Positions 3,866 to 63,984 of a stretch of DNA of 64,000 nt are shown piece by piece. Each line of letters opens with the position of its first letter. Within the stretch, counting starts at the first letter, position 1. The stretch is from contig DITS01000001.1 of the NCBI GenBank assembly GCA_002422205.1, positions 19,221 to 83,220 of the forward strand, in the 5' to 3' direction. A program made the position numbers and the translations under genes. This DNA comes from Alphaproteobacteria bacterium UBA6178. GTDB lineage: Bacteria > Pseudomonadota > Alphaproteobacteria > Rickettsiales > UBA3002. The notes beneath the pieces were generated by a model. The model was given only the letters and a program-made list of their open reading frames with translations, did not search any database and was not told the DNA's origin.

Positions 3866-4012
3866 GTCATACTGCGGGACGCGCAGCGTCAGCGCAGACT
3901 CTCACGCCGCCTCCTGAGATCCTGCGCTCTCGCGTTGCGAGCCGCAGGATGACAATTACTAAGAGAGGCTTCCTTCGCTCACCCTCACCGTCATTCCCGC
4001 GCAAGCGGGAAC
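3866..4012. repeat. intergenic repeat block: 88-bp element B (3866-3953) plus GTCAT hairpin H1 (3990-4012)
   Basis: B has the ends GTCATACTGCGG...CCGCAGGATGAC and is near-identical to 28052-28139. H1 is GTCATTCCCGCGCAAGCGGGAAC. The block lies between the convergent tyrC and HAD gene ends. Confidence 0.85.
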
Positions 4013-4018
4013 CCAGCC

Positions 4019-4681
4019 TTACTTAGCTAAGCCCACCGTCTTCAGCAATTCCATCAACGCCTGATGGTCGCGCACATGATGGGTGAAGGCATGGCCCAAA
4101 TACGCACCATCTTCCGTTTCCACATCACCATAGAGCACAGGTAGGCAACCGCTGCTATTGGCGCATTCCAAATCGACGATTGTATCGCCGATAAACCATA
4201 CATGCGCGCCTGCTTTCATACCGCTTTCTTTGAGTGCCAGCTCGACGGGTGCGCAATGGGGCTTATCGGCATGCGCATCATCGGCGCCCACAATCGCATC
4301 GAAATAATGGTCCCATCCCAGATTACTAATCTCGGTACGCAAGGTCTCGCCGCGCTTATTGCTCACCACCCCCACAAAGGCGTCGCTATCGCTCAGCATG
4401 CTCACCACATCAAGCGCACGCGGCAGCGGGTGCAAATGCGTCAGGTGAATGCTGCGGTAATAATCCTGATATTGTTTGGCGGCATCTTCCCATTTATCGC
4501 CAAACATCAGTGGAAACGCATCACGCATGGATTTTTTGACGTTGGCTTTGGTTTTCGCCAAATCCCATTCGGGGTGCTGCATAAAGCGCAGCGTATGGTT
4601 CAGCGCCTCATGAATAGTGGGCCAGGTGTCCACCAGCGTGTTATCCCAGTCAAATAAAATCGCTTTGGGTGTCAGGTTCAT
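4019..4681 (-). CDS. HAD-superfamily hydrolase (phosphoglycolate-phosphatase-like)
   Basis: 220 aa. Motif I is AILFDWDNTLVDT. A later GDTIVD resembles motif IV. Confidence 0.75.
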   Translation of the reverse strand: MNLTPKAILFDWDNTLVDTWPTIHEALNHTLRFMQHPEWDLAKTKANVKKSMRDAFPLMFGDKWEDAAKQYQDYYRSIHLTHLHPLPRALDVVSMLSDSDAFVGVVSNKRGETLRTEISNLGWDHYFDAIVGADDAHADKPHCAPVELALKESGMKAGAHVWFIGDTIVDLECANSSGCLPVLYGDVETEDGAYLGHAFTHHVRDHQALMELLKTVGLAK

Positions 4682-5553
4682 GCGGCGCGCCTTTGCTGTG
4701 CCTGTATTTGTGATTTCACATGTGCGTCAAACAGTGCCACCAGCTGGCTGGTAATCGTGCCCACCGCGCCATTGCCAATCACCTGTTCATCCACCTGCGT
4801 CACCGGTGTAATAAAGGCCGAGCAGCTGGTGATAAATGCCTCGCGCGCATCGCGGATATCGTCGAGCGTAAAGGCCTCTTCGCTTACCTTAATCCCATTG
4901 GCGCGGGCGAGTTGCAACGTCATATGGCGGCGCACCCCACCCAGTATCGCCTGCGTCGCGGGGTGGGTGCGCAGCACGCCATCCTTATCGACAATATAGG
5001 CATTCGACAGCGCGCCTTCGGTCACCACCCCGTCGCGCATCTGCCATGTTTCCTTTGCGCCTGCGCGATAGCTTTGCATGCGCGTGAGCATATTCGGCAG
5101 CAACGCAATCGCCTTAATATCGCAGCGCGTCCAGCGAATATCGGGCGCAGTAATCACGCGCACCCCTTCATCACGCTCGGTATCATTGCGGAATTTCGGC
5201 GGCATCAGTGCCATGGTCAGCACCGGTATCATGCTATCACTGAAAATATGGTTACGTGGTGCCACGCCACGGGTAATTTGTAAATAGACCACCCCATGAT
5301 TGCGTTGGTTACGGCGCATCAGTTCGCGCATTTTCATCACCAGCGCGGCACGGCTCAGCGGCATCGGAATTTCGAGCTGTTGCAACGAACGCTCCAGCCG
5401 GTCGAGATGCAGTTCAATATCGATCAGCGCGCCATTGATGGATGCAATGGCCTCATAAATCCCGTCAGCAAACTGATAGCCGCGATCTTCCATCGCCACC
5501 ATCGCCTGCGAGGCGGGGACATAACGGCCATTCACATATACAATCCGGCTCAT
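4678..5553 (-). CDS. class IV aminotransferase (D-amino-acid transaminase-like)
   Basis: 291 aa. EDRGYQFADGIYE and the fold-type IV layout are present. 4-nt overlap with the HAD gene. Confidence 0.75.
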   Translation of the reverse strand: MSRIVYVNGRYVPASQAMVAMEDRGYQFADGIYEAIASINGALIDIELHLDRLERSLQQLEIPMPLSRAALVMKMRELMRRNQRNHGVVYLQITRGVAPRNHIFSDSMIPVLTMALMPPKFRNDTERDEGVRVITAPDIRWTRCDIKAIALLPNMLTRMQSYRAGAKETWQMRDGVVTEGALSNAYIVDKDGVLRTHPATQAILGGVRRHMTLQLARANGIKVSEEAFTLDDIRDAREAFITSCSAFITPVTQVDEQVIGNGAVGTITSQLVALFDAHVKSQIQAQQRRAA

Positions 5554-6518
5554 GCCGCCCTCTTTTTTGTTTCGTTGGCCTGCGCGATATACCAGTGGAC
5601 CGTTTGTTCCAGCCCCTCATCCATTCGCTGCGGCGGACTCCAACCTAATAGTTGATGTGCCTTCGAAGTGTCAATGCGTAACGAGCGGCAGACGCTATCA
5701 TACAATCGCTCTTTGCCAACACAGACTGCAATACGGCTTAGCCAGCGAATCGGAATATAGAGCAGTTTTGTCGGTTTATGCATGTGTTTTGCAAGCTTTT
5801 TAACCAGATGCGGTGTCGAAACCGCCTCGCCATCGGCTACCAAAAACGTCTCATTCGCCGCCTGCGGATGGCTCAGGCAGCAGTCAATCAAATCGCATAA
5901 ATTGGTGACGGAGACAAAATCACGCTTGTTCTTCACACGGCCAAATGGCAAATATCGGCATTTATATACATTATGCATCAGCCGGTAAAAATTGGCCTTC
6001 ACCCCCGGCCCATAGACCAGCGGCGGGCGAATAATCACCACCTCCAGACCGGTGTCGGTTGCAATCTTGCGCAAGCGGTTTTCCGCCTGCCATTTCGAGC
6101 TGCTATAGGCATTAGACGGGTTCGGATCAGCCGCCTCGGTAAAGGGCTCGTCACTGTAATTGCCCAGCACGCCGATGGTGCTTAAAAACACCAGCCGTTT
6201 CACTCCGGCCTTAATAGCTTCATGCGCTAAATGCGTCGTGGCCTCAACATTGATGGTACGAAATTCACGATCAGGATCGGCGACTTTTTCATGCAACACA
6301 TGCACACGCGCTGCCGTATGCACCACCGCATCCACCCCTTGTAGCGCTTCGCTCCAATCGGTGTTTCCGTCTAGCTCGCCCACGCAAAAATCGCCTGCGG
6401 TGTCAGACTGACGCACAGCGTGCACCACCTCATGCCCGTGCTGCTGCAACATGCTGCACAGATTCGAGCCGACAAAACCATTAGCGCCTGTTACCAGAAT
6501 TTTCATATCCAGCGCCAT
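5550..6518 (-). CDS. NAD-dependent sugar epimerase/dehydratase (SDR family)
   Basis: 322 aa. KILVTGANGFVGSNL Rossmann fold and a YSSSK catalytic motif. Confidence 0.8.
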   Translation of the reverse strand: MALDMKILVTGANGFVGSNLCSMLQQHGHEVVHAVRQSDTAGDFCVGELDGNTDWSEALQGVDAVVHTAARVHVLHEKVADPDREFRTINVEATTHLAHEAIKAGVKRLVFLSTIGVLGNYSDEPFTEAADPNPSNAYSSSKWQAENRLRKIATDTGLEVVIIRPPLVYGPGVKANFYRLMHNVYKCRYLPFGRVKNKRDFVSVTNLCDLIDCCLSHPQAANETFLVADGEAVSTPHLVKKLAKHMHKPTKLLYIPIRWLSRIAVCVGKERLYDSVCRSLRIDTSKAHQLLGWSPPQRMDEGLEQTVHWYIAQANETKKRAA

Positions 6519-7294
6519 CCCCAGCTATTGAAATACACCCACATAGAATGCAGCATCACACGTAGCAGCCGCCAGCTTTTATGCGAACCGCGCGCCCAAT
6601 GATGGGTAATGCTCGCATTCGGATAATACACGCAGCGCGCAATCGCCGAGGTGCGGCGCGTAATATCGCAATCTTCCAGATACATGAAATAACGCGTATC
6701 AAATCCGCCCACACGGCGCAACACCTCGCTGCGAAACAGCATAAAACAGCCGCTGATAAAAGGCACATCAATGATTTTATCATAGCTCACATCGCGCATT
6801 TCATAGCGCGCCATTTTACGCTGCACATAAGGGTTTTTCTGTTGCACGCGTTTAGGCAAAAAGCGCCGCGCGAATAAATCAAACACGGTCGGCAAGCGTT
6901 TGTTGAGTGGTTGCAGTGAGCCATCGGCATTTTGCACTTTGGGTGCCAGTAAACCAATATCAGGATTGGCATCCATATAATCGGTCATGGCCTGAAGTGT
7001 GCCTTCATGAATCACCACATCGGGGTTTAAAATCAGGTGATAATCACTCGCGGGCGCTTTCGCAAAACCGATATTGTGGCCCGCGCCATAGCCTTTATTG
7101 GCACCCGCCTCTATCAGCGTTATCCCTTCAATCTGGCGCAATGCCTGCACATAATCGGCCCCAGAATCATTATCGATAATGCTAATGGCCACCGGTAATG
7201 GGGTGGATAGAAAACTTGCCACCGCTGCTCTCACCTGCTCAATCGGTGAGCGATAGGTGACAATGCATGCGGTGATGCGAAGGGTAGCGCTCAT
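6503..7294 (-). CDS. family 2 glycosyltransferase
   Basis: 263 aa. CIVTYRSP...IIDNDSGADY...GANKGYGAGHN...EDCDI, GT-A type motifs (DxD, ED). Confidence 0.8.
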   Translation of the reverse strand: MSATLRITACIVTYRSPIEQVRAAVASFLSTPLPVAISIIDNDSGADYVQALRQIEGITLIEAGANKGYGAGHNIGFAKAPASDYHLILNPDVVIHEGTLQAMTDYMDANPDIGLLAPKVQNADGSLQPLNKRLPTVFDLFARRFLPKRVQQKNPYVQRKMARYEMRDVSYDKIIDVPFISGCFMLFRSEVLRRVGGFDTRYFMYLEDCDITRRTSAIARCVYYPNASITHHWARGSHKSWRLLRVMLHSMWVYFNSWGWRWI

Positions 7295-8729: not shown

Positions 8730-8731
8730 CG

Positions 8732-13727: not shown

Positions 13728-13802
13728 GCGGGTGTAGCTCAGGGGTAGAGCGTCACCTTGCCAAGGTGAAAGTCGAGAGTTCGAATCTCTTCACCCGCTC
13801 CA
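13728..13802 (+). tRNA. tRNA-Gly (anticodon GCC)
   Basis: GCGGGTGTAGCTCAGGGGTAGAGCGTCACCTTGCCAAGGTGAAAGTCGAGAGTTCGAATCTCTTCACCCGCTCCA. 7-bp acceptor stem, anticodon loop TTGCCAA, T-loop GTTCGAATC, encoded CCA. Confidence 0.95.
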
Positions 13803-19655: not shown

Positions 19656-19668
19656 TAGGCAGATTATG

Positions 19669-19701
19669 ATTCCCGTGCAGGCCCATCCCCCGCACGGGAA
19701 T
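19669..19701. repeat. 10-bp-stem hairpin between convergent gene ends
   Basis: ATTCCCGTGC-aggcccatccccc-GCACGGGAAT. No T-run, so not a classical terminator. Confidence 0.6.
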
Positions 19702-19717
19702 CTACCCACGGGGGGTT

Positions 19718-26201: not shown

Positions 26202-26341
26202 AAGTGGATCGCCCGGATCGGCGAGGCCGACCGGAGGATGACAGTATCATGAGGGTTGTCACCCCGTGCTTGTCACGGGGTGACAGCATATAAGCAACTT
26301 CACTTCCCCCTCTCCCTCACGGAGAGGGTCGGGGTGAGGGC
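26202..26341. repeat. intergenic repeat block: H8 (26202-26242), H2 variant (26258-26284), E element (26306-26341)
   Basis: H8 is AAGTGGATCGCCCGGATCGGCGAGGCCGACCGGAGGATGAC (homolog at 34032-34072). The H2 variant is GTCACCCCGTG-cttgt-CACGGGGTGAC. E is CCCCCTCTCCCTCACGGAGAGGGTCGGGGTGAGGGC (homolog at 51254-51282). Confidence 0.85.
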
Positions 26342-27921: not shown

Positions 27922-27951
27922 ATCCCGGGAGGAGACTCCCGGGATTTTTTT
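27922..27951 (+). terminator. rho-independent terminator of amtB
   Basis: ATCCCGGGAG-gaga-CTCCCGGGAT followed by TTTTTTT. Confidence 0.85.
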
Positions 27952-28188
27952 AGTTTTTGCGTTTGCTCCTGCTCTGGGCTACTGCCCTCCGCAATGAGCC
28001 TAATGCTTCGCGACTAAAGGCTCGGACTCCTGTCCTCGTTCTCTATTATTCGTCATGCTGCGGGACGCGGAGCGTCAGCGCAGTATCTTCTGCCACCTCA
28101 TGAGATCCTGCGCTCTTGCTGCGCAAGCCGCAGGATGACAAAATTATGGAAGGCTGTCACCCCGTCGCATGACGGGGTCCGGCCTTCC
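27952..28188. repeat. intergenic repeat block: element A (27952-28040), element B (28052-28139), H2 with outer stem (28148-28188)
   Basis: A is ...TTTGCTCCTGCTCTGGGCTACTGCCCTCCGCAATGAGCCTAATGCTTCGCGACTAAAGGCTCGGACTCCTGTCCTCGTT. B is GTCATGCTGCGG...CCGCAGGATGAC. H2 is GGAAGGC-TGTCACCCCGTCGCATGACGGGGTCC-GGCCTTCC. Confidence 0.85.
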
Positions 28189-30469: not shown

Positions 30470-31147
30470 TTAGCGCTTGGTGCTGCGCCGTCCGAAAGCA
30501 TTGGGATTTTCAAAGGTAAACAGCGACGCATCGAGCGGCAAATCATAACGCGCATCCGAGAGTTTAATATGCGTAGACTGGCCCAGCGTGTCGGTCAGAA
30601 TCAGATTTTCCAGCTTTAATGGCTTGTCAGAAAACTCCATTGTCAGCGTGCCTTCATCCTGCTTTTTGGTTTGCAGGAGCGTAAAGCGGATGGATTTGGC
30701 GCCCTCGCGGAAATGCACTACGCGTAGCGCGTCATCATCAAATTTAATATCCGGCTTCGCCAAAAACGCCGCTAATGTGCTCTCAAGCGGTAATTGCGAT
30801 ACCTGATTCAGCTCATAATCATAATAGGTGAGCGTTTTGCCGCTCGATACCATCAGAATCGGCGTCGGTGGATTATACTGCCAGCGCATTTTGCCGGGCC
30901 GCTCCAGATAGAGCTTACCGCTCGCCAGCGCGCCATCGGGTGCCACTTGTGTAAAATCAGCGGTGATGGTTTTGATGTCATTTAAATAGCGCTCAATTCG
31001 ACGCAAAGTGCTCACTGGATCGGCAGTCGCGCTTTCCACTTGCGGCGCTTGCGTATGCCAGGGCAGCGGCGCATTCACCGGCGCGGCCTGCGCTGCCACG
31101 CCCCATGTCATGCCGATAAAAGCAGGAATCAAATATGCATATTTCAC
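30470..31147 (-). CDS. lolA: outer-membrane lipoprotein carrier protein LolA
   Basis: GTG start at 31147 gives the signal peptide (M)KYAYLIPAFIGMTWGVAAQA|APV. FTQVAPDGALASGKLYLERPGKMRWQY is present. The longer track ORF (to 31351) reads through repeat modules and the ftsK 3' end. Confidence 0.8.
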   Translation of the reverse strand: MKYAYLIPAFIGMTWGVAAQAAPVNAPLPWHTQAPQVESATADPVSTLRRIERYLNDIKTITADFTQVAPDGALASGKLYLERPGKMRWQYNPPTPILMVSSGKTLTYYDYELNQVSQLPLESTLAAFLAKPDIKFDDDALRVVHFREGAKSIRFTLLQTKKQDEGTLTMEFSDKPLKLENLILTDTLGQSTHIKLSDARYDLPLDASLFTFENPNAFGRRSTKR

Positions 31148-31151
31148 CCTT

Positions 31152-31255
31152 GTCACCCCGTCGCATGACGGGGTCTGGGCTGAAGTAATGCCGGATACCG
31201 TCATAAAGACGGCATGACAATTCTTCACTGAACTCTGAACTCTGGACTCTGAACT
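31152..31255. repeat. intergenic repeat block: H2 (31152-31175), H3-like (31188-31218), four CTGRACT heptads (31228-31255)
   Basis: GTCACCCCGTCGCATGACGGGGTC; ATGCCGGATACCGTCATAAAGACGGCATGAC; CTGAACT CTGAACT CTGGACT CTGAACT, ending 1 nt from the ftsK stop codon. Confidence 0.85.
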
Positions 31256-31256
31256 C

Positions 31257-33584
31257 TTAGCTAGCCCGACTAAGCACTTCGCGTTTGCCGACATGGTTGG
31301 CTTGCCCGACAATGCCTTCTTCTTCCATTTGTTCAATAATACGTGCGGCACGGTTATATCCTATCTTCAATTTGCGCTGAATATAGCTGGTCGATGCCTT
31401 CTGGTCACGCAAAACAATCTGGACTGCCTGATCAAACAAGGCGCGCTCGCCATCGCTTTCATCTTCGCTACCATATAATACGTCGCTTTCTTCATCTTCC
31501 TTCGTTACATCCTCGACATAACTTGGTTCGCCCTGTTCTTTGAGGAAGGTCACGATTGATTCGACTTCCCTATCGGCGATGAAAGGCCCGTGCACGCGCT
31601 GAATCCGCCCGCCGCCTGCCATATAGAGCATATCGCCATGGCCCAGCAGTTGCTCGCCGCCCTGTTCACCCAAAATCGTGCGGCTATCAATTTTCGAGGT
31701 CACCTGAAAACTCACGCGGGTGGGGAAGTTCGCTTTAATCACGCCGGTAATCACATCCACCGACGGGCGCTGCGTCGCCATGATAATATGAATACCCGCC
31801 GCGCGCGCCATTTGGGCAAGGCGCTGAATCGAGGTTTCGATATCCTTGCCCGCCACCAGCATCAGATCGGCCATTTCATCGACCACCACCACAATAAAGG
31901 GCAGCGGCGCCATATCGAGTGCGACTTTTTCCATCACCGGTTTACCGGTATGCGGATCAAATCCGGTTTGCACGGTGCGGAATAATTCCTCGCCCTTGCG
32001 CGCCGCATCCTTAATGCGCTTATTGTAATTTTCGATATTGCGCACACCCAGATTCGACATCAGGCGGTAACGGTTTTCCATTTCTTTCACCGTCCATTTC
32101 AGCGCCACTACCGCCTTGCCCGGCTCGGTCACTACCGGCGACAGCAAATGCGGAATATTGTCATAAACGGACAATTCCAGCATTTTGGGGTCTATCATAA
32201 TAAAGCGGCATTCTTCCGGCGTCAGGTGATAAATCAGCGACATGATCATGGTATTGATCGCCACCGATTTGCCCGAGCCGGTCGTGCCCGCTACCAGCAA
32301 ATGCGGCATGCGCGATAAATCCGCAATCACCGGATCGCCACCAATATCCTTGCCCATTACCAGCGGCAGCTTGGCATCGGTTTGCTGGTAGGTGGGATGT
32401 TCGAGCATTTCGCGTAAGTAAACAATCTCGCGTTCGGCATTGGGCATTTCAATCCCCAGCGCATTTTTGCCCGGCACCACTGCAATCCGCGCCGACACCG
32501 CGCTCATCGAGCGGGCAATATCATCCGCCAGACCAATCACGCGGGATGATTTGGTGCCCGCAGCAGGCTCCAGCTCATACAGGGTTACCACCGGCCCGGG
32601 CCGCACGCGGGTGATATCACCCTTAATACCAAAATCCTGCAAGGTCGCTTCCAGCAGCTCAGCATTTTGTGCCAGCGCCGCGTCGGATAATTTTTTCTTC
32701 TTCGCTTTCGATGGGACTTTCCCCATCAGCTCGGTCGAAGGCAGCTCAAAATCGCCATGCTGTTCGCGCAATGCCAGCGATGCCTGCGACTGGCTGTGAT
32801 CCACTTCCGCATTGCGGCTTTCCACCACGGCGGATGAAATCTTTTTCACATGCAGTTTGGGTGCCGGTGCTTCCTTCACGCGTGCACGGCGGGTACGGCT
32901 GCTGCTTTCTTCTTCGCTATCCTCGTCTTCTTCATCAGCGTCTTGGGCCGAGCCGCGCAGCGCATCGCGTATCAACGCGCCGAGTGCGCGCAGGCGGTGC
33001 CCTATCTGGCCCGCGACAATCAGCATCGCCACCCATTCATTGCGGCGCAAGCCAAAGGCAAGCGGCAGGCTGATCACGCTCAGTGCCAGCATCAACGGGG
33101 CCACCACCCAGATGGTGAGTAATTGCGCCAGATTCCCCGCAATCAAAAAACCAATCGAGCCGCCCAGCCCCGTGGCAATAGGCCAGTTGGTCCATGCCGG
33201 AATGCAGGCGAAAAACGCCGAAGTCGCCACCAGCGCAAACATCAGCGCGCTCGTGCGCATCATCCAGCCGCGCAAGCCGCGCTTGCTCACCAGCCGCCAC
33301 GCCCAGCATAACAATGCAAATACCAGCACCATGCTGGCCAAGCCTGTGGTTTGAATCAGCGCATCCGCAACATGCGAGCCAAACGCCCCGCCATGATTAT
33401 GGACGCTGTCGCCGCCGGTTTTGTTCAAAGACGGATCGGTCGGATGATAGCTCAGCAACGAAATCGCAATAAAGCCTGCCAAAGCGGCCATGCCCAGCCC
33501 TGCCAGCTCATAGCTGCGGCGTCGAATAAACAAGCGTAGCGGAGAAACAGGCGGCGTCGCCTTCCCACGTTTTCGGGCAGTCAT
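31257..33584 (-). CDS. ftsK: DNA translocase FtsK
   Basis: 775 aa. N-terminal TM domain, acidic linker, motor domain (HLLVAGTTGSGKSV, VVVVDEMADLM) and a C-terminal gamma domain (ASTSYIQRKLKIGYNRAARIIEQME). Confidence 0.93.
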   Translation of the reverse strand: MTARKRGKATPPVSPLRLFIRRRSYELAGLGMAALAGFIAISLLSYHPTDPSLNKTGGDSVHNHGGAFGSHVADALIQTTGLASMVLVFALLCWAWRLVSKRGLRGWMMRTSALMFALVATSAFFACIPAWTNWPIATGLGGSIGFLIAGNLAQLLTIWVVAPLMLALSVISLPLAFGLRRNEWVAMLIVAGQIGHRLRALGALIRDALRGSAQDADEEDEDSEEESSSRTRRARVKEAPAPKLHVKKISSAVVESRNAEVDHSQSQASLALREQHGDFELPSTELMGKVPSKAKKKKLSDAALAQNAELLEATLQDFGIKGDITRVRPGPVVTLYELEPAAGTKSSRVIGLADDIARSMSAVSARIAVVPGKNALGIEMPNAEREIVYLREMLEHPTYQQTDAKLPLVMGKDIGGDPVIADLSRMPHLLVAGTTGSGKSVAINTMIMSLIYHLTPEECRFIMIDPKMLELSVYDNIPHLLSPVVTEPGKAVVALKWTVKEMENRYRLMSNLGVRNIENYNKRIKDAARKGEELFRTVQTGFDPHTGKPVMEKVALDMAPLPFIVVVVDEMADLMLVAGKDIETSIQRLAQMARAAGIHIIMATQRPSVDVITGVIKANFPTRVSFQVTSKIDSRTILGEQGGEQLLGHGDMLYMAGGGRIQRVHGPFIADREVESIVTFLKEQGEPSYVEDVTKEDEESDVLYGSEDESDGERALFDQAVQIVLRDQKASTSYIQRKLKIGYNRAARIIEQMEEEGIVGQANHVGKREVLSRAS

Positions 33585-33867: not shown

Positions 33868-34384
33868 TAGTTTGTGTCTGCTCCTGCTACGGCCTACTGG
33901 CCTCCGCAATGAGCCTAACGCCTTCGGCAACTGAAGGCTCGAACTACTGTCCTCGTTCTTTACTTCTCTTCCTTTCTTCCTTTTTAATCTTGTCATTCCC
34001 GCGACAGCGGCAATCCAATCTGACTTGGTTCAAGTGGATCCCCGGGATCGGCGATGCCGCCCCGAGGATGACGGTATCCGTAAGCTTGTCACCCCGTCGC
34101 ATGACGGGGTCTGGCCTTGCTTCTGCCAGCCCCACTTTGTTTGCGTTCGCCCTCGCTTTGCACTACTATGCTACGCGAGGAACCTAAGCGCTTCGCGCAC
34201 TACAGACTCGGCCTGCTGACCTCGCTATCCCATTTGTCATGCTGGCGCTCAATGCCAGCATCTCATCCCACGCGCCGGATACTGGCGTCAAGCGCCAGTA
34301 TGACGCCCTCCTCTCCCCTTGCCGCCTGCCTTCATTCCGCCACGCCTGCATTTTTACTGAACTCTGGACTCTGAATTCTGGACT
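33868..34384. repeat. 517-bp solid mosaic of repeats between ffs and dnaX
   Basis: Modules are A (33868-33957), H1 (33992-34014), H8 (34032-34072), H2 (34088-34111), a diverged A copy (34136-34226), an H4 pair (34236-34261 GTCATGCTGGCG...; 34279-34304 ...CGCCAGTATGAC), and heptads CTGAACT CTGGACT CTGAATT CTGGACT (34357-34384). Confidence 0.85.
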
Positions 34385-34412
34385 CTCACAAAAAACCTGC
34401 TAATTTCACCTG

Positions 34413-36415: not shown

Positions 36416-36522
36416 GGGTTGAGAGGCTAGAGGCTAGAGACTAGGGATCACTTTATCTCTTTATCTTCCCTTACCCCTAACCTCTAGCCTCTAGCCTCTA
36501 ACCTCTAGCCCCTAACCCCTAG
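36414..36522. repeat. inverted heptad arrays between ybaB and recR
   Basis: The left arm is GAGGCTA GAGGCTA GAGACTA (36423-36443). The right arm has seven heptads, CCCCTAA CCTCTAG CCTCTAG CCTCTAA CCTCTAG CCCCTAA CCCCTAG (36474-36522). The arms are mutually complementary. The ybaB stop lies at the left edge and the recR ATG is 7 nt after the right arm. Confidence 0.85.
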
Positions 36523-37133: not shown

Positions 37134-37213
37134 GTCATGCCGTGTTTATCACGGCATCCGGCCTTAAGACCAGACCCCGTCATGCTGAACCTAAAACCTG
37201 TAACCTAACACCT
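37134..37213. repeat. intergenic repeat block: H3 (37134-37157), half H2 (37171-37185), AACCT-type heptads (37187-37213)
   Basis: GTCATGCCGTG-tttat-CACGGCAT; CAGACCCCGTCATGC; AAAACCT GTAACCT AACACCT. Confidence 0.8.
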
Positions 37214-40009: not shown

Positions 40010-40080
40010 GTCACCCCGTCGCATGACGGGGTCTGGCCTTTTTATTTAGCTGCCGGATGCCGTGACAAGCACGGCATGAC
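40010..40080. repeat. intergenic repeat block: H2 (40010-40033, followed by a T-run) and H3 (40057-40080)
   Basis: GTCACCCCGTCGCATGACGGGGTCtggccTTTTT; ATGCCGTG-acaag-CACGGCATGAC. Confidence 0.85.
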
Positions 40081-41134: not shown

Positions 41135-41258
41135 GACTATCCTGCCTTGTCCTATTGGACTATCTTGCCTTGTCGCCCGACACCAGTATCTATCTTTTCC
41201 TGCCTAACCGACACCCGCACCCTCCGCCCAAGATTCTGGGGTCAATCCCCAGAATGAC
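41135..41258. repeat. intergenic repeats: 17-bp direct repeat x2 (41135-41151, 41158-41174) and hairpin H6 with its CCTCCGCCCAAGAT flank (41221-41258)
   Basis: GACTATCCTGCCTTGTC / GACTATCTTGCCTTGTC (period 23); CCTCCGCCCAAG-ATTCTGGGG-tcaat-CCCCAGAAT-GAC. Confidence 0.8.
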
Positions 41259-43475: not shown

Positions 43476-44237
43476 ATGAGCGAGCCCAAACTCACTGCCG
43501 CCAAAGCCGATCTTACCGCCAGTCACGGCACGCATGATATCAGCCGCTCCGCCGCCATCATGGCCGCCATGCTGGCGCATGAGGTGAAAAATCCGCTCTC
43601 AGGTATTCGCGGTGCGGCACAGCTGCTCAGGCAACGCGCCAGCGAAGACGACAAACCATTAGCCGATCTGATTTGCCGCGAGGTTGACCGCATTAATACG
43701 CTGATCAATAAAATCGAGTTTTTCTCCAACGAGCCCGTCGCCTGCGCCGAGTCGGTGAATATCCATGAGGTGTTGCAATATGTGCGCGAGGTGGCGCATT
43801 CCACCTTTGCCGCGCATGTGACTATTCAAAGCCGGTATGACCCGTCACTGCCCGATGTACGCGGCGACCGCGAATTGCTGGTGCAGCTGTTTATTAATCT
43901 GGTCAAAAACGCTGCCGAAGCGCTAGAAGGGCGCGATGATGGCGTCATCACCCTCAAAACCGGCTATCAGATCAATCATAAATTTCGCATTGCAGGCCGC
44001 GAGCCTTTTATTTCCCTGCCCATTGCCATCACCATCGAGGATAATGGCGGCGGTATCGCACCCGATCTGCAATCCTCGATTTTTGATCCCTTCGTTACCT
44101 CCAAAGCGCAAGGCAACGGCCTCGGCCTCGCCATCTGCGCCAAAATCGTCGGCGACCATGGCGGCACCATCGCACTCGATACCAGCTTGGCGGGGCATAC
44201 AAGGTTTCATATTTTGTTGGGAGTGGCAAAGAATTAG
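43476..44237 (+). CDS. ntrB: nitrogen-regulation sensor histidine kinase NtrB, short form lacking an N-terminal sensor (PAS) domain
   Basis: 253 aa. The H-box (LAHEVKNPLSGIRGAAQLL) begins at residue ~33. N, G1 and G2 boxes are present. The start is 2 nt after the dusB stop. Confidence 0.85.
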   Translation: MSEPKLTAAKADLTASHGTHDISRSAAIMAAMLAHEVKNPLSGIRGAAQLLRQRASEDDKPLADLICREVDRINTLINKIEFFSNEPVACAESVNIHEVLQYVREVAHSTFAAHVTIQSRYDPSLPDVRGDRELLVQLFINLVKNAAEALEGRDDGVITLKTGYQINHKFRIAGREPFISLPIAITIEDNGGGIAPDLQSSIFDPFVTSKAQGNGLGLAICAKIVGDHGGTIALDTSLAGHTRFHILLGVAKN

Positions 44238-44395
44238 GGGCTAGAGGCTGGGGGCTGGGGGCTGGGGGTTGGGGGCTAGCCCTTCCCTCGTCATTCCCGC
44301 GACAGCGGAAATGACAACAAAAAAGGAAGGCCAGACCCCGTCATGCGACGGGGTGACAAATATCTATACTGCCCTAGCCTCTAGCCTCTAGCCCC
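44237..44395. repeat. composite element: heptad array, H1, H2, inverted heptad array
   Basis: GGGGCTA GAGGCTG GGGGCTG GGGGCTG GGGGTTG GGGGCTA (44237-44278); GTCATTCCCGCGACAGCGGAAATGAC (44290-44315); GACCCCGTCATGCGACGGGGTGAC (44334-44357); TAGCCTC TAGCCTC TAGCCCC (44375-44395, the reverse complement of the left array units). Confidence 0.85.
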
Positions 44396-45995: not shown

Positions 45996-46074
45996 GTCAT
46001 GCTGCGCGCGGTGAAACCGCAGGATGACAACTAAAACCTGTAACCTAAAACCTGTAACCTAAAACCTGTAACCT
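45996..46074. repeat. short B-type hairpin (45996-46028) plus three tandem 14-mers AAAACCTGTAACCT (46033-46074)
   Basis: GTCATGCTGCG-cgcggtgaaa-CCGCAGGATGAC. The 14-mer array ends 2 nt before the ntrY ATG. Confidence 0.85.
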
Positions 46075-49793: not shown

Positions 49794-49844
49794 TTCGTAA
49801 TTCACAGTTCGATTATCGAATGACGAATGACGAATCACGAGCTA
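49789..49844. repeat. eight tandem heptads between ntrX and trkA
   Basis: CGTAATT CGTAATT CACAGTT CGATTAT CGAATGA CGAATGA CGAATCA CGAGCTA. The ntrX stop TAA (49791-49793) lies in the first unit. The left and right halves are imperfectly complementary. Confidence 0.8.
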
Positions 49845-51253: not shown

Positions 51254-51461
51254 CTCCCTCCGGGAGAGGTCGGGCTGAGGGCCCTTGCTTATGCTTCGTA
51301 GTTGCTAGTTGTCAGCCTTCAGTTGCCAGTCCAGCCTCGCCACCGTCATACTGGTGCTCAAGCTCAGTGTCTCCACCTGTATCCTCCGCCCAAGATGCTG
51401 GCATCAAGTGCCAGCATGACGATAATCTGTGCTCCGTCATACTGGCGCTTGACGCCAGTAT
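51254..51461. repeat. intergenic repeat block: E (51254-51282), YAGTTGC-type heptads (51299-51333), H4-like (51345-51370), H4 (51395-51420), H4 (51436-51461)
   Basis: CTCCCTCCGGGAGAGGTCGGGCTGAGGGC; TAGTTGC TAGTTGT CAGCCTT CAGTTGC CAGTCCA; GTCATACTGGTG...; CCTCCGCCCAAG-ATGCTGGCA-tcaag-TGCCAGCAT-GAC; GTCATACTGGCG-cttga-CGCCAGTAT. Confidence 0.85.
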
Positions 51462-51478
51462 CCACTAAGCGGCAAGCT

Positions 51479-53611: not shown

Positions 53612-53843
53612 TTTTGTGTTTGCTCCTGCTGCGGGCTACTGCCCTCCGCCAGCGCCTGACGCTTACGCGACTAAAGGCTCGGTCTACTGACCTCGGTTTT
53701 ATGTCTTGTCATTCCCGCGAAAGCGGGAATCGAGCCCTACCTCTTCACTGGATACCCGCTTTCGCGAGTATGACAATCAAAAAGTAAAAATATTCCGCAT
53801 CACCAATACGGGCAACCCTTCACTGAACTCTGTACTCTGAACT
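53612..53843. repeat. intergenic repeat block: A (53612-53698), H1 (53708-53730), H1 variant (53751-53774), heptads CTGAACT CTGTACT CTGAACT (53823-53843)
   Basis: GTCATTCCCGCGAAAGCGGGAAT; GATACCCGCTTTCGCGAGTATGAC. The A copy is in the same orientation as the other A copies. Confidence 0.85.
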
Positions 53844-57865: not shown

Positions 57866-57939
57866 GGCCCGATGGCAGAGTGGTGATGCAGCGGTTTGCA
57901 AAACCGTGAACGTCGGTTCAATTCCGGCTCGGGCCTCCA
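57866..57939 (+). tRNA. tRNA-Cys (anticodon GCA)
   Basis: GGCCCGATGGCAGAGTGGTGATGCAGCGGTTTGCAAAACCGTGAACGTCGGTTCAATTCCGGCTCGGGCCTCCA. The cloverleaf folds and CCA is encoded. ORF 57748..58011 on the opposite strand is spurious. Confidence 0.93.
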
Positions 57940-58046: not shown

Positions 58047-58196
58047 ATTGCCTCCGCGGCTCGCCTCCTGCTCGCCCGTTAGGCGCCGCTCAAGGCTGAT
58101 GCGGTTTACTAACCGCATGTTCCATTGCCTCCGCGGCTCGCCTCCTGCTCGCCCGTTAGGCGCCGCTCAAGGCTGATGCGGTTTACTAACCGCATG
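58047..58196. repeat. perfect tandem duplication of a 73-bp unit (period 77)
   Basis: ATTGCCTCCGCGGCTCGCCTCCTGCTCGCCCGTTAGGCGCCGCTCAAGGCTGATGCGGTTTACTAACCGCATG occurs at 58047-58119 and 58124-58196. Each unit ends in an ATGCGGTT-tact-AACCGCAT hairpin. Confidence 0.9.
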
Positions 58197-58220
58197 CTTG
58201 TTGCAACATCTTTTTAAAAC

Positions 58221-58243
58221 GTCATTTCCGCGAAAGCGGGAAT
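58221..58243. repeat. GTCAT hairpin H1
   Basis: GTCATTTCCGCGAAAGCGGGAAT, 22 nt 3' of the 58266..59114 gene stop codon. Confidence 0.85.
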
Positions 58244-58265
58244 CCAGAGCGCTTACATCCGCGCC

Positions 58266-59114: not shown

Positions 59115-59148
59115 AATTCACTCCTACCTAGAGCATTGCGCGCGGGCT

Positions 59149-59191: not shown

Positions 59192-59288
59192 TGTTCCTAG
59201 CATTTATTGCCGCTATGAATAGCAACGCAGCGGATTGAATTTACTGCAAGCTGCTGGGGATACGTATAAAAAATTTTATGCTGGTGCA

Positions 59289-59304
59289 TGGCACAGGGAT
59301 TGCT
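59289..59304 (+). promoter_or_regulatory. sigma-54 (RpoN) promoter of the RTX-like gene
   Basis: TGGCAC-AGGGA-TTGCT is an exact match to TGGCAC-N5-TTGCW. It lies 39 nt upstream of the ATG at 59343, which has the SD AAGGA. Confidence 0.7.
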
Positions 59305-59342
59305 ACCATGCGGCTTCACATTATAATGTAAGGATATGCGCG

Positions 59343-61859
59343 ATGGTTGCTTATAATTTCGACCTCATTCTCGATCAGGTGGTCACCTTTTCCCCTGATG
59401 CGGATAGTTTGCGCTTCAGCACGGTTTCCGCTTCGCAGGTGAGCTTCACCGTGGTGGATACGCGCCTGCGCGTCAGCACCGCAGCGGGTAGCGCTCTGCT
59501 TGATAGCACCCCAGCGCGCGAAGAAACCACACCCGCCATTTTCAGCCTGACCAATATCACCTTTCTCGATGGTAGCGTGTTCGTCGCAGGTGATGCGGAC
59601 AGTGCCGAGACCACGCTCGACGGCGCCGATAACATCATTGATTTCACCACCGATTTAAGTCTGGTCAACGCCATCAACAAAAATAATCAAATCCACGGCC
59701 TTGGCGGCAATGACGAAATCATCATGGGCAGCAGCGCCGGTAATCATCTGATTTTTGGCGGCGCAGGCGGCGACAGCATCACCTCCGGCGAAGGCAACAG
59801 CACGATCTATGGCGGCACCAGCCTGTCCGATACCAGCGATGGTGCCGATTCCTTTATTTTAGGCGCAGGCAGCAATGATGTCTATGGCAATGCGGGCGCC
59901 GATGCGGTGACCTTTGCCTCGCCCACCGGCGTGGGCCACACTTTACGCTTCTGGGGCGGCGTCGGCGCCGACAGCCTCACCGCAAGCGGTGCCAGTGGCA
60001 GCATGTTTGTGCAGGCAGGGCCCGACAGCGACGTTATCACGCTCAGCAATGCGGGCAACAGCACCTTGTTCGGCGGCTCGGGCAGCGACACACTCGACAT
60101 CACCGGCAGCACCGGCAACGCCACCCTCTATGGCGGCAATGGCATTGCTGATACCAGCGATGGTAATGACCGCATCATCAGTGGCAATGGCAATGTCGTG
60201 ATTTATGCCAATGCGGGCAACGATAATATCACCCTCAATAATGTCGTCGGTACGATTGCGACCGTGTATTTAGGCGCAGGTACCGATTCGCTCGATTCCG
60301 CAGCAGTGGGCGGCACCTTTCAAATCTGGGGTGGCCCGTCGGGCGATGTGATAGACCTCACCAATCACACCGGCAATGCGACCATATACGGTGGCAATGG
60401 CAATTACGATCCGACCGATGGCAACGACACCATCACCGGCAGCGGCAGTGGCAACAGCATCATTTACGGTAATGCCGGTAATGACCGCATCACCGTTACC
60501 CCGGCTGCTGGGCGCAGCGCGATCGTTTATGCAGGCGCGGGCAATGATACGATTGCCGCCTCCCCCACCGCTAACAGCGCCACACTGCAATTATTTGGCA
60601 ATACCGGCGATGATCGCTTTCAGCTTGATTTCACCAACGGCGCTCCGTCAGTGCGTATCGAAGATTATGGCACCGGCAGTAACGGCGTCGATTTAACATT
60701 GAGCGGTGGCGCAGCAGCAGCCAACCTCACCGTCGACCGGCTATCCACCAGCGATACGGTTTTACGCAATGGCAGCAGCGAACAGATTTTACTGGGTGGC
60801 TTTCGTGGCAATTTTACCACCGCCAGCACGAAGTTCAGCGATAGCTCCTTGCTCATCACCAATTTTGGCGGGGCGGCAGCCTCACTGGCTGGGGGCGTGG
60901 GCAGCGACCAGCTGATTGCGGGTAATAACGGCGACACGCTCACCGCTGGCACTGGTGGCAATGACAAACTCACCGGCGGCAATGGCAATGACCGTTTTAT
61001 TCTTACCACCGAAACACTCACCAACATGGATACGATTGCCGGTGGCGCAGGCACCGACACGCTGGTGCTGGGCACGCCCAACACCGCCATTACCGATTTT
61101 GCCTTTGATCATGTCAGCAGCATAGAAACCCTTGTGATTCTCGCGGGCGATTACAGCGTCAACGGCTTTACATTGGGCAGCAACGCGTCACAAGCAGGCA
61201 TCGTCACAATCGACGCGATTTTGGCGGGTGCGTTATCGGTTGATTTATCGACCATGACGCATGGCGTCAGCTATACCGGCGGTACGGGCAGCGATGTGCT
61301 CATCAGCACCGCACATGATGATTTCATCCGTGGTGGCGCAGGCGATGACACCATCATCGGCGGGCGCGGCAATGATACCATTCGTGGCGGCACCGGCGAT
61401 GATGTGTTCGCTTATCAAACCACCGCCATTCAGGGCGTCGATCGCTATCTCGATGTCGATTTCGGCACGTCTGCAACGGCAGGCCTTGCCGACCGCTTCC
61501 AGTTCGATGCGTCACTCACCGCCCTCAATCTCGGGAATAATGATGATAGCGTCGATGGAGCCATTATCAACAGTGTCACCAGCGCCGGATCAGCGGGAAC
61601 CGAGCTGATTATTTTGCGCAATGTCGCACTCAATGCCGACAACCGCGCTGCCTCGCTTGACATTATTAATGCCGACGCAGCGATAGGCGACGGGGTGATC
61701 AATGTGTTCTACGACAGTAGTGAAGGCCATGTGGTGATGTATTACGATCAGGATGGCCGCACCGCAGGCGGGCATCTCAAATTTGCCTCCCTTGAAAATC
61801 TGACCGCCCTGACCGATATGAATGTGATCGATTTCAGCGATTTTATTTTCACGGCATAA
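59343..61859 (+). CDS. large RTX-type calcium-binding beta-roll repeat protein (probable type I secretion substrate)
   Basis: First ATG of ORF 59235..61859 (MVAYNFDLILDQ...). Canonical nonapeptides are present (GGAGDDTIIGGRGNDTIRGGTGDDVFAY) plus many degenerate GGxGxD/GNxGxD units. The C-terminus ...GHVVMYYDQDGRTAGGHLKFASLENLTALTDMNVIDFSDFIFTA is typical of alphaproteobacterial RTX proteins. Confidence 0.85.
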   Translation: MVAYNFDLILDQVVTFSPDADSLRFSTVSASQVSFTVVDTRLRVSTAAGSALLDSTPAREETTPAIFSLTNITFLDGSVFVAGDADSAETTLDGADNIIDFTTDLSLVNAINKNNQIHGLGGNDEIIMGSSAGNHLIFGGAGGDSITSGEGNSTIYGGTSLSDTSDGADSFILGAGSNDVYGNAGADAVTFASPTGVGHTLRFWGGVGADSLTASGASGSMFVQAGPDSDVITLSNAGNSTLFGGSGSDTLDITGSTGNATLYGGNGIADTSDGNDRIISGNGNVVIYANAGNDNITLNNVVGTIATVYLGAGTDSLDSAAVGGTFQIWGGPSGDVIDLTNHTGNATIYGGNGNYDPTDGNDTITGSGSGNSIIYGNAGNDRITVTPAAGRSAIVYAGAGNDTIAASPTANSATLQLFGNTGDDRFQLDFTNGAPSVRIEDYGTGSNGVDLTLSGGAAAANLTVDRLSTSDTVLRNGSSEQILLGGFRGNFTTASTKFSDSSLLITNFGGAAASLAGGVGSDQLIAGNNGDTLTAGTGGNDKLTGGNGNDRFILTTETLTNMDTIAGGAGTDTLVLGTPNTAITDFAFDHVSSIETLVILAGDYSVNGFTLGSNASQAGIVTIDAILAGALSVDLSTMTHGVSYTGGTGSDVLISTAHDDFIRGGAGDDTIIGGRGNDTIRGGTGDDVFAYQTTAIQGVDRYLDVDFGTSATAGLADRFQFDASLTALNLGNNDDSVDGAIINSVTSAGSAGTELIILRNVALNADNRAASLDIINADAAIGDGVINVFYDSSEGHVVMYYDQDGRTAGGHLKFASLENLTALTDMNVIDFSDFIFTA

Positions 61860-61877
61860 GATAAGGACTCGTTGCCT

Positions 61878-62804
61878 ATGGCCGCGCCCAAAGCAGAAAA
61901 TCCCACCGACGAGGAAACGCTCAGCATCGTTGAAGGTATCAGCACCATCGTCAAAAATCCCGAAGCACTCAGTGAAGAAGCCCGCATGGCCAAAGATTTT
62001 CTAGCCACGCAAGGGGTTGAGTGGGGTTTGCATCTGCTCGCTGCATTACTCATCTTTTTTATCGGTAAATGGTTTGCCAAAAAAATTATGATTGCTGTGC
62101 GCAAGCTCATGGTGCGTAGCAAGGTCGATGACACGCTGGTCGATTTTGTAGGCAACATGCTGTATGCGCTGGCACTCACCTTTGTCGCGATTGCGGCGAT
62201 CAGCCAGTTGGGTGTCAACACCACCTCGCTTGCCGCAGTGGTGGCCGCAGCCGGTTTAGCAATCGGCCTGTCATTGCAAAGCTCGCTATCCAATCTTGCC
62301 GCCGGGGTGATGATTATTACCTTCCGCCCGTTCCGCCGTGGAGACTATGTCGAAATCGCCAATACCGCCGGGTCGGTGCAAGAGGTGAATATGTTCACCA
62401 CCACCCTCACTTCGCCCGATAATAAAACGATTATCGTGCCTAATGGTTCGGTCATTTCCAATAATATCATCAATTATTCCGCTATGGCCACGCGCCGCGT
62501 TGATCTGACATTCGGCGTCAGCTACAGCGATGATTTGCGTAAGGTGAAAGCGGTATTGCATGAGATTCTGGAAGCTGATGATCGGGTACTCAAAGACCCC
62601 GAACCCACCATTGCCATTGGCGCGCTTGCCGATAGCAGCGTCAATGTATTATGCCGACCATGGGTTAAATCCGCCGATTACTGGGCTGTCTACTGGGATT
62701 TAATGGAGCGCGTCAAGCTTCGCTTCGACGAGGAAGGCATCACCATCCCATTCCCGCAACGCGAAACCCGCATGATCTATCTCAACAAACCGCAGGATGT
62801 GTAA
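61878..62804 (+). CDS. mscS: small-conductance mechanosensitive channel (MscS family)
   Basis: ATG at 61878; the track ORF starts at a TTG 6 nt earlier. GLAIGLSLQSSLSNLAAGVMIITFRPFRRGDYVEI and NNIINYS motifs. Confidence 0.88.
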   Translation: MAAPKAENPTDEETLSIVEGISTIVKNPEALSEEARMAKDFLATQGVEWGLHLLAALLIFFIGKWFAKKIMIAVRKLMVRSKVDDTLVDFVGNMLYALALTFVAIAAISQLGVNTTSLAAVVAAAGLAIGLSLQSSLSNLAAGVMIITFRPFRRGDYVEIANTAGSVQEVNMFTTTLTSPDNKTIIVPNGSVISNNIINYSAMATRRVDLTFGVSYSDDLRKVKAVLHEILEADDRVLKDPEPTIAIGALADSSVNVLCRPWVKSADYWAVYWDLMERVKLRFDEEGITIPFPQRETRMIYLNKPQDV

Positions 62805-62805
62805 C

Positions 62806-63846
62806 ATGGATTATCGCAAGTTGGGTAATACGGATATCCAGGTCAGCACCATTTGTCTGGGCACCATGACATGGGGCGAGCAAAACACCGAAGCCGACGC
62901 CCATGCGCAGCTCGATTATGCGCTAGCACAGGGTGTCAATTTTATCGATGTGGCTGAAATGTATCCGGTACCGCCGCGTGCCGCCACGCAAGGGCGCACC
63001 GAATCCTATATCGGCAGTTGGCTTGCCCAGCGCGGCAGGCGTGACGATGTGATTATCGCCACCAAAGTGGTAGGCCGCTCACAGAATTTTGATTATCTGG
63101 GGCGTGGCGAAACCCGCCTCAACCGTGCCCAAATTCATGCCGCGATTGATGGCAGCCTCAAGCGCCTACAAACCGATTATGTCGACTTATACCAGCTGCA
63201 CTGGCCCGATCGCGCCACCAATTATTTCGGCGAGTTGGGCTATACTCACAAAGCCGACGATGACGCCATTGCACTAGAAGAAACGCTCAGCGCGCTGGCC
63301 GAGTTGATACAGGCTGGCAAAGTGCGGCATATCGGCTTATCGAACGACACGCCATGGGGTGTGGCGGAATGCCTGCGCCTGCATCGCGAGCAGCAATTGC
63401 CGCGTATCATGAGCGTGCAAAATCCCTACAGCCTGCTCAATCGCAGCTACGAGGTTGGGCTGGCCGAAATGTCGATCCGCGAGCAATGCGGTTTGCTCGC
63501 TTATTCGCCGCTGGGCTTTGGTGTGCTATCGGGCAAATATCTCGATGGCAAACAGCCCGATGGGGCGCGGCTTACTTTGTTTGAGCGTTTCCAGCGCTAT
63601 ACCGGCATCAAAGCCACCACCGCCACCGCCCGCTATGTGGCACTCGCGCATGAGCATGGGCTGGACCCCGCGCAAATGGCGCTGGCCTTTGTCACCATGC
63701 AGCCCTTTGTCACCAGCAATATTATCGGTGCCACCACGTTGGAACAGCTTACCAGTAATATCGGCAGTCAACGCCTCACCCTCCCCCCCGAGGTGCTCTC
63801 GGGCATTCAGGATATTCATCAGGACATTCCCAACCCCTGCCCGTGA
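62806..63846 (+). CDS. NADP-dependent aldo/keto reductase (Tas-like)
   Basis: ATG at 62806 (MDYRKLGNTDIQVSTICLGTMTWG), 1 nt after the mscS stop. DVAEMYP and LYQLHWPD motifs. Confidence 0.88.
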   Translation: MDYRKLGNTDIQVSTICLGTMTWGEQNTEADAHAQLDYALAQGVNFIDVAEMYPVPPRAATQGRTESYIGSWLAQRGRRDDVIIATKVVGRSQNFDYLGRGETRLNRAQIHAAIDGSLKRLQTDYVDLYQLHWPDRATNYFGELGYTHKADDDAIALEETLSALAELIQAGKVRHIGLSNDTPWGVAECLRLHREQQLPRIMSVQNPYSLLNRSYEVGLAEMSIREQCGLLAYSPLGFGVLSGKYLDGKQPDGARLTLFERFQRYTGIKATTATARYVALAHEHGLDPAQMALAFVTMQPFVTSNIIGATTLEQLTSNIGSQRLTLPPEVLSGIQDIHQDIPNPCP

Positions 63847-63984
63847 CCCTGCTCCTGCTCCCTGCTCTCGCCCCCTGTGCCCCTCCACCCTCCCCCGTCA
63901 TTACCCGCTTCATGCGGGTAATCCCCCTCACTCCCATTCGGCTATTAAAGATAAGTAGATTACCCGAACAAGTCGGGTAATGAC
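63847..63984. repeat. pyrimidine-rich short-period array (63847-63896) and H5 hairpin pair (63897-63922, 63959-63984)
   Basis: CCCTGCTCCTGCTCCCTGCTCTCGCCCCCTGTGCCCCTCCACCCTCCCCC; GTCATTACCCGC-ttcat-GCGGGTAAT; ATTACCCGA-acaag-TCGGGTAATGAC. Confidence 0.8.

Follow-up and report, generated by a model that had tools for sequence, protein, structure and literature searches.

We analysed a stretch of 64,000 nucleotides, hereafter the window, from the uncultured alphaproteobacterium UBA6178 (contig DITS01000001.1, positions 19,221 to 83,220), together with the sequence just beyond it. The window has a G+C content of 54% and an alphaproteobacterial gene content (ntrBC-ntrYX-trkA, DUF2497, ispDF and others); its gene map was rebuilt from the gene calls and Pfam matches of an identical 554-kb metagenome contig (ENA ERZ27315062 k141_870551). 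Between the genes lie approximately 31 oriented hairpins, imperfect and long-stem copies counted, each built as GTC, a stem beginning with A(T/C), a loop of 4-5 nt, the complementary stem and a C. Shortly past the end of the window, a small GIY-YIG nuclease gene related to ssnA of Neisseria sits within an array of such hairpins. Taken together, our results make it very probable that the window hairpins belong to the Ssn-related motifs (SRM), a class that also takes in the Neisseria repeat NTS with its dRS3 core.

A preliminary description of the window had proposed a superfamily of about 29 GTCAT-flanked hairpins. The superfamily was borne out with a slightly higher count, and the coordinates cited there were all checked and hold the sequences assigned to them. 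The GTC flank also stood, but the AT after it is not invariable: the 5' rule reads GTC-A-Y because the ACCCCGTC family begins GTCAC, and the 'AT' of GTCAT is the outermost part of the stem, not a separate flank. A conserved C on the 3' side, long-stem forms and inverted doublets had been missed. Within the window, a perfect stem of 7 bp or more directly follows 19 GTCA[TC] sites, compared with a mean of 0.87 (maximum 4) in 30 shuffles. Among the roughly 26 perfect hairpins that lie between genes and have stems of 8 bp or more, about 18 carry a GTC/GAC flank. A larger sample of 0.79 Mb, comprising the window, a 5-kb extension and 103 loci from metagenome-assembled genomes (MAGs), contained 288 GTC-anchored perfect hairpins, whereas shuffled sequences gave 8-14. 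The palindrome is directly followed by C in 261 of these 288 elements (91%), and 271 have T or C as the base before GTC. The GTC...C frame is common to at least nine stem families in one genome, and long-stem forms with an inner mini-hairpin occur at 3866, 3953, 26242, 28052, 28139, 34072 and 45996.

The two arms had been said to change together, and this proved correct. In an alignment of 18 short-form elements, imperfect copies included, 97.8% of cells were paired, compared with 66.9% in column shuffles and 25-50% when the partner was slid; double-sided changes were found at seven of eight stem positions. Since the elements had been picked as hairpins, this covariation is supportive rather than independent proof. 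Single-stranded DNA folds of the hairpins gave z-scores of -3.5 to -6.8.

Confinement of the copies to intergenic DNA was likewise upheld. The non-genic share of the window is 10.5%, and all of the approximately 31 elements fall within it. The single apparent genic copy, at 31152, lies within a mis-called 5' extension of lolA (30470-31204, minus strand): the called start at 31204 adds about 20 residues encoded by a hairpin doublet, and initiation at the GTG at 31144 would yield MKYAYLIPAFIGMTWGVAAQA, which is a normal, typical signal peptide. The repeats inflate gene calls in this way at lolA and also at the C-terminus of the Ssn protein (...GLPEQVG). A deliberately generous open reading frame (ORF) map takes up 83% of the 0.79 Mb; of the 288 elements, 77% lie outside it and 23% inside. 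Three other assemblies that overlap the window are 100% identical to it and are therefore uninformative on insertion or deletion of hairpins.

That the window holds no partner gene, as previously stated, is literally true but misleading, as ssn begins 324 nt past its end. This ORF occupies window-equivalent positions 64324-64647 on the plus strand (L004 4468-4791, minus strand) and encodes a 107-residue single-domain protein, whose residues 4-78 match Pfam GIY-YIG (E = 4.9e-12). The gene stands amid at least nine ATTACCCG hairpins (GTCATTACCCG[C/A], the family of 63897/63959) on both sides, and its stop codon lies inside one hairpin of the array. By BLASTP, the protein and the SsnA orthologue of N. 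gonorrhoeae are 49% identical in a gapless alignment (E = 7e-36), a comparison made with the gonococcal orthologue and not with the N. meningitidis protein itself. By tblastn, it matches a single place in each of two complete N. gonorrhoeae chromosomes at E = 3e-25, where the Ssn criterion of the paper that described the family is a tblastn E < 1e-10 (PMC11893778). The gonococcal ORF encodes 94 residues, carries the Y6, Y17 and E64 mutated in that study (PMC11893778) and lies amid 16 NTS copies. The local protein has the same catalytic Tyr/Tyr/Glu; Y7, Y18, G20, R28, E65 and N84 are invariant across its homologues, which number in the thousands and are typically about 95-105 residues long; strains of Rhizobium, Shinella and Sphingobium are among the carriers of a homologue. 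The homology to SsnA, the shared catalytic residues, the NTS array around the gonococcal gene and the gapless alignment place the local protein, as judged from its sequence, in the Ssn family. We also noted that PLSDB files two 2.17-Mb N. gonorrhoeae chromosomes (NZ_CP119140.1 and NZ_CP119142.1) as plasmids, which is a labelling error.

An AlphaFold model of the local Ssn (pLDDT 85) matched only GIY-YIG nucleases in the PDB (BH0048, Slx1 and UvrC). Proteins of the UPF0213 group (YhbQ/BH0048 type, PDB 1zg2) and the Slx1 and UvrC domains share the catalytic fold and are the closest solved structures, but they are distant from the local Ssn in sequence (E = 4.7e-4, 23 bits, compared with more than 100 bits to Ssn-family proteins). 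To our knowledge, these nucleases have no tie to hairpin repeats. The PADLOC, PHROGs and NCBIfam libraries returned no match for the local nuclease.

The link between gene and hairpin recurs in other genomes. The exact 24-mer GTCACCCCGTCGCATGACGGGGTC is present in more than 103 loci, spread over numerous uncultured alphaproteobacterial MAGs of lakes, groundwater and wastewater, whose NCBI labels are inconsistent. Of 103 MAG loci chosen solely by their ACCCCGTC hairpin, six carry the gene of an Ssn subtype that is 49-57% identical to the local Ssn and has inverted ACCCCGTC hairpins on both sides. When the 106 complete ORFs within 200 nt of a ACCCCGTC hairpin were clustered, Ssn-like proteins formed the sole family with three or more members.

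We extended this to 139 further Ssn genes from metagenomes and viral contigs, around which hairpins were sought without requiring GTC. Their most frequent flanks were nevertheless 5'-GTC or 3'-GAC. Forward GTC hairpins prevailed upstream of the gene (65:29) and reverse ones, ending in GAC, downstream (71:29), such that GTC points to the gene on both sides. A GTC hairpin lay within 350 nt of 81 of the 139 genes, and on both sides of 51. GTC-AT opens 65 of the 81 nearest hairpins and a C follows 75 of the 81; their loops (GAAG, GAAA, GCAG, CTTGT and CTTGA) are those of the window. Hairpins flanking one gene have an arm in common in 76% of pairs, compared with 27% when they come from different genes. 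There is a weak correlation between the similarity of the arms and Ssn protein identity (Mantel r = 0.25, a value reached in none of 2000 permutations), which could be explained by shared ancestry as well as by co-adaptation. Fifty-five Ssn homologues were found on contigs classified as viral in IMG/VR (L194-L248).

Chenal et al. (Nat Commun 2025) reported that, of the dRS3 repeats of Neisseria (ATTCCC-N8-GGGAAT), about half lie within a longer oriented motif, NTS (CGTCATTCCCGCGMAVGCGGGAATCYRG), and that NTS-like SRM occur in many bacteria, where they flank the small GIY-YIG gene ssnA (PMC11893778). SsnA binds and cuts its motif only as single-stranded DNA and leaves duplex DNA and RNA uncut; binding depends most on the C after the palindrome and cleavage on the three bases preceding it (GTC), and the cut falls a few nucleotides 5' of the motif, in the motif strand only (PMC11893778). 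In meningococci, Ssn lowers the integration of NTS-bearing transforming DNA (PMC11893778). The SRM pattern of that study has seven matches in the window, all intergenic, where 0.20 are expected. The 28-nt NTS consensus is matched with one mismatch, as that study itself allowed, at 3989 and 58220 and with two at 53707, where none is expected, and the NTSvar pattern has no match in the window. The window elements further resemble NTS/SRM in being oriented hairpins with (H)GTC on the 5' side and C following the palindrome, in their GAAA, GAAG and GCAG loops, in their almost exclusively intergenic position and in the arrays on both sides of a single-domain GIY-YIG gene of about 100 residues. The GTCAT rule had not been recognised as a described family. 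Neisseria dRS3 repeats and NIME arrays were reportedly described by Parkhill in 2000. The repeat class is already described, as dRS3/NIME in 2000 and 2007 and as NTS/SRM-Ssn in 2025, which speaks against the preliminary description on this point, except that Ssn is not known to mobilise the repeats. In the window, the dRS3 core occurs in the ATTCCCGC family only, and the mosaic array from 63897 to about 64990, which resembles a NIME, carries ATTACCCG stems. NIMEs have been stated not to occur outside Neisseria (Bentley 2007, PMC1797815), and our host is an alphaproteobacterium. Its window contains neither the Neisseria DNA uptake sequence (DUS) nor the Pasteurellaceae uptake signal sequence (USS), and an origin in Neisseriaceae or Pasteurellaceae was rejected on that ground.

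Several points weigh against this assignment. The seven matches to the hand-made SRM pattern leave about 24 of the approximately 31 elements outside it, and these (ACCCCGTC, ATGCCGTG, ATTACCCG and long-stem families) were assigned by architecture and gene linkage. The 74 kb examined contain one Ssn gene, flanked by one stem family only, so that the tie of the other families to an enzyme in this genome is indirect. The candidates for a second Ssn paralogue in the same organism (P0005, P0109 and P0126) all come from other samples. The elements also show no orientation bias with respect to GC skew or transcription of the kind that would indicate a replication-linked role: relative to GC skew, the GTC strand is distributed 107:102 overall and 36:29 among singletons, and it is the sense strand nine times and the template strand seven times. 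Finally, we know of no demonstration that Ssn copies or moves hairpins.

If the hairpins are SRM, each would form on the GTC strand once the DNA is single-stranded, and Ssn would bind the stem-loop and nick a few nucleotides 5' of the motif. By homology, the local 107-residue protein may be active on these hairpins, with the ATTACCCG hairpins as its predicted substrate. The local Ssn probably acts on the other stem families too, by way of the GTC...C frame that all have in common, or else these families depend on additional Ssn paralogues encoded elsewhere in the genome. Both inverted doublets and hairpin-ssn-hairpin cassettes may spread as units, and the cellular role would presumably be the control of incoming or transiently single-stranded DNA.

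Several arrangements hint at such unit-wise copying. Many elements are inverted doublets, and an 88-nt doublet at 3866-3953 recurs at 28052-28139 with about 80% identity over its whole length, which takes in the spacer. Slightly different hairpins also recur in fixed pairings, namely ATGCTGGC with ATACTGGC, ACCCCGTC with ATGCCGTS and ATTACCCGC with ATTACCCGA. Around ssn, from 63897 to about 64990, hairpins and the spacer repeats between them form a NIME-like mosaic with a period of about 170 bp. In another metagenomic organism (L255 5537-6381), an Ssn-like gene and a small Cys-rich ORF, flanked by degenerate, decayed GTC hairpins, lie between ilvB and ilvN, which encode the large and small subunits of acetolactate synthase; this cassette looks like an old insertion. 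The Ssn array (L004 4124-5237) also contains, beside full ATTACCCG hairpins, half-copies of 32-34 nt that consist of GTCATCACCCGACTTGTTC and C-rich filler without a 3' arm. Elsewhere such half-copies are rare (11 of 560 hairpins have one on their 5' side and 4 of 560 on their 3' side), and we dropped them as a general signature near Ssn genes.

These hints allow a bolder proposal. Several GIY-YIG replicator lineages, analogous to REPIN-RAYT systems, might co-exist in this genome, with each stem family (ATTACCCG, ACCCCGTC, ATTCCCGC, ATRCTGGC, the long ATCCTGCG forms and others) kept by its own Ssn paralogue and with an inverted doublet or a hairpin-ssn-hairpin cassette as the spreading unit. 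The different stems that bracket different Ssn subtypes, the 88-nt doublet present twice with its spacer kept and the ilvB-ilvN cassette suggest this proposal, which we nevertheless consider tentative and rather less likely to be right than wrong. If it holds, Ssn would be a domesticated mobilising nuclease and not merely a restriction-like single-stranded DNase.

We also considered that the hairpins might work at the RNA level, as terminators or as stabilisers of mRNA 3' ends, with their sequence families as by-products. Repetitive extragenic palindromic (REP) elements stabilise upstream mRNA, and several elements here lie 7-17 nt past stop codons (37134, 40080, 41258 and 51436), so a secondary effect of the hairpins on mRNA ends may well exist. 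However, none of the approximately 15 elements between 26 and 46 kb scores as an intrinsic terminator because the hairpins have no T-run. The genuine terminator at 27922 does not belong to the GTC elements, and the element at 26258 lies in a divergent promoter region. The near-equal split of GTC between sense and template strands also speaks against such a role, which would leave unexplained both the strand-specific GTC...C frame and the hairpins' association with a DNA nuclease gene. A search of Rfam, as the preliminary description had proposed, returned only two tRNAs and the signal recognition particle (SRP) RNA for the window at the gathering score, and no RNA family covered the hairpins. 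As the main function of the hairpins, we regard an RNA role as very improbable.

Still less probable is that the hairpins are mainly attachment or target sites of an IS110/Piv-type recombinase and owe their abundance to that system. In Neisseria, Nf/MDA phages integrate at dRS3 by means of a transposase/recombinase that the phage encodes (PMC1797815; PMC11893778), and the ATTCCCGC family carries the dRS3 core ATTCCC-N8-GGGAAT, as at 53711-53730. No IS110-type or phage integrase is found among the annotated genes of the 74 kb, in which no search with an IS110 reference was made, and no such family recurs beside ACCCCGTC hairpins. Moreover, GTC and C are conserved outside the dRS3 palindrome and match Ssn recognition; an IS110-type integration role could co-exist with Ssn.

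The layout had been likened to REP elements and bacterial interspersed mosaic elements (BIMEs), an analogy that the authors of the NTS/Ssn study also drew (PMC11893778). It holds for the short conserved 5' flank of an intergenic hairpin, read as single-stranded DNA by a specific enzyme, for the inverted doublets and for the enzyme gene flanked by its own repeats. It fails for the partner that had been suggested, a REP-associated tyrosine transposase (RAYT) of the IS200/IS605-like HUH type, of which the Pfam-annotated 74 kb and a search of about 1.6 Mb showed no example. The enzyme here is a hydrolytic GIY-YIG nuclease, in contrast to an HUH/Y1 transesterase, and the flank is GTC followed by A(T/C) instead of GTAG/GTGG. 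Least probable of all is that the hairpins are REP/REPIN elements mobilised by a RAYT with GTCA in place of GTAG: oriented intergenic hairpins with a conserved 5' flank and doublets able to fold as one long hairpin, as in REPINs, are expected of such elements, but no Y1_Tnp or other transposase domain occurs among the Pfam-annotated genes of the 74-kb region, E. coli RayT gave no phmmer match at E <= 1 among all ORFs of the 1.6 Mb (a single-sequence query of limited sensitivity), and GIY-YIG is the sole family recurring beside the hairpins. No transposition activity is known to us for Ssn.

Reading the hairpins as SRM reveals no new kind of system. Raw sequence has independently led back to a repeat class for which no partner enzyme was identified before 2025, and the class is extended to an uncultured, apparently free-living alphaproteobacterial lineage of freshwater and wastewater. 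What goes beyond the published account is that one genome combines these stem families, most of which do not fit the published SRM pattern, that it has long forms with an inner hairpin and recurrent REPIN-like inverted doublets, apparently copied as units, and that related MAGs pair another Ssn subtype with another stem family. Paralogues, doublets and multi-family genomes are not discussed there (PMC11893778). The locus thus constitutes a natural experiment, with many stems in one frame and relatives that carry another Ssn subtype and another stem. It provides material for asking whether Ssn reads structure and flank or the stem sequence too, which bears on the proposed programmable single-stranded DNA cutter, and whether Ssn spreads hairpins, a question that dRS3/NIME have posed for 25 years.

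The individual elements are as follows, in window coordinates. The first 88-nt inverted doublet has as its left half a long-form GTC hairpin with arms ATACTGCG/CGCAGACT and two mismatches (3866-3901, plus strand) and as its right half the long form GTCATCCTGCG...CGCAGGATC (3918-3953, minus), in which a perfect 8-bp outer stem encloses an inner 5-bp hairpin (free energy -13.9 kcal/mol, z -4.6). The NTS-type element CGTCATTCCCGCGCAAGCGGGAACCCAG follows at 3989-4016 (plus) and is an SRM pattern match. An imperfect long form, ATCCTCCGG...CCGGGCGAT, with an inner TCGGC/GCCGA hairpin lies at 26207-26242 (minus) and belongs to the family of 34037-34072; next to it, the symmetric GTCACCCCGTG-CTTGT-CACGGGGTGAC at 26258-26284, with GTC on both strands, is the element of the divergent promoter region. 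The second copy of the 88-nt doublet consists of a long-form hairpin at 28052-28087 (plus, left half) and GTCATCCTGCG...CGCAGGATC at 28104-28139 (minus, right half). It is followed at 28156-28179 (plus) by the ACCCCGTC-family hairpin GTCACCCCGTC-GCAT-GACGGGGTC, the 24-mer shared with the MAG loci. Upstream of the likely true lolA start, a ACCCCGTC-family hairpin (31152-31175, plus) forms a doublet with a ATGCCGTC hairpin with one mismatch (31194-31218, minus).

Five elements are gathered between 33992 and 34304. These are a ATTCCCGC (NTS-like) hairpin with one mismatch (33992-34015, plus), the long form GTCATCCTCGGGG...CCCGGGGATC, also with one mismatch (34037-34072, minus), a ACCCCGTC-family hairpin located 3' of the SRP RNA and overlapping only a spurious 92-residue ORF (34088-34111, plus), and a doublet of ATGCTGGC (34236-34262, plus) and ATACTGGCG (34278-34304, minus; SRM pattern match), the whole of which also folds as one long hairpin (-20.6 kcal/mol). 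A ATGCCGTG hairpin at 37134-37158 (plus) begins 7 nt past the recR stop codon, and a truncated ACCCCGTC element at 37170-37185 (minus) retains only the loop, the 3' arm and a CTGG tail. A further doublet pairs a ACCCCGTC hairpin (40010-40033, plus) with a ATGCCGTG hairpin (40056-40080, minus) that lies 9 nt from the cinA stop codon. The ATTCTGGGG hairpin at 41232-41258 (minus), an SRM pattern match, has a CTTGGGCGGAGG tail in common with 51394-51420.

In the distal part of the window, the symmetric NTS-like GTCATTCCCGC-GACA-GCGGAAATGAC with one mismatch (44290-44315, no strand) precedes a ACCCCGTC hairpin (44334-44357, minus), and the symmetric GTCATGCTGCG-N11-CGCAGGATGAC, also with one mismatch, lies at 45996-46028 (no strand). 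A degenerate ATACTGG-type copy (51345-51382, plus) is followed by two SRM pattern matches, the ATGCTGGCA hairpin at 51394-51420 (minus) and a ATACTGGCG hairpin at 51436-51462 (plus). The NTS-type TGTCATTCCCGCGAAAGCGGGAATCGAG at 53707-53734 (plus) is the perfect hairpin that contains the dRS3 core cited above, and the neighbouring ATACTCGC hairpin at 53751-53774 (minus), with one mismatch, matches the SRM pattern, as does the NTS-type CGTCATTTCCGCGAAAGCGGGAATCCAG at 58220-58247 (plus). The last hairpins are ATTACCCGC (63897-63923, plus), the first unit of the mosaic array around the Ssn gene, and its inverted partner ATTACCCGA (63958-63984, minus); the half-copy tract of the array starts at 63985-64000 (no strand).

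Other features of the region were noted alongside the hairpins. The segment 13900-20500, directly after tRNA-Gly (13728-13802), has a lower G+C content (46-52%), and most of its genes have no Pfam match (244, 256, 375, 55 and 147 residues), apart from a faint match to DUF2971; it is probably a genomic island. Inside it, at 19668-19702, a hairpin with an 11-bp stem, GATTCCCGTGC-N13-GCACGGGAATC, has a dRS3-like ATTCCC...GGGAAT core without a GTC flank. Beside tRNA-Cys (57866-57939), a perfect 77-bp tandem duplication (58047-58196) holds the GTC-less hairpin ATGCGGTT-TACT-AACCGCAT at 58099 and 58176. Short intergenic tandem arrays with units of 7 or 14 nt (CTGAACT, CTAGCCT, GGGGCTG, CTAAAACCTGTAAC and CGAATGA) lie at 31228-31257, 34357-34386, 36477-36522, 44237-44277, 44374-44393, 46031-46074 and 49817-49840. 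Several of these arrays adjoin GTC hairpins or sit just 5' of start codons (recR, ntrY and trkA), and they are reminiscent of the cyanobacterial short tandemly repeated repetitive (STRR) heptamer sequences.

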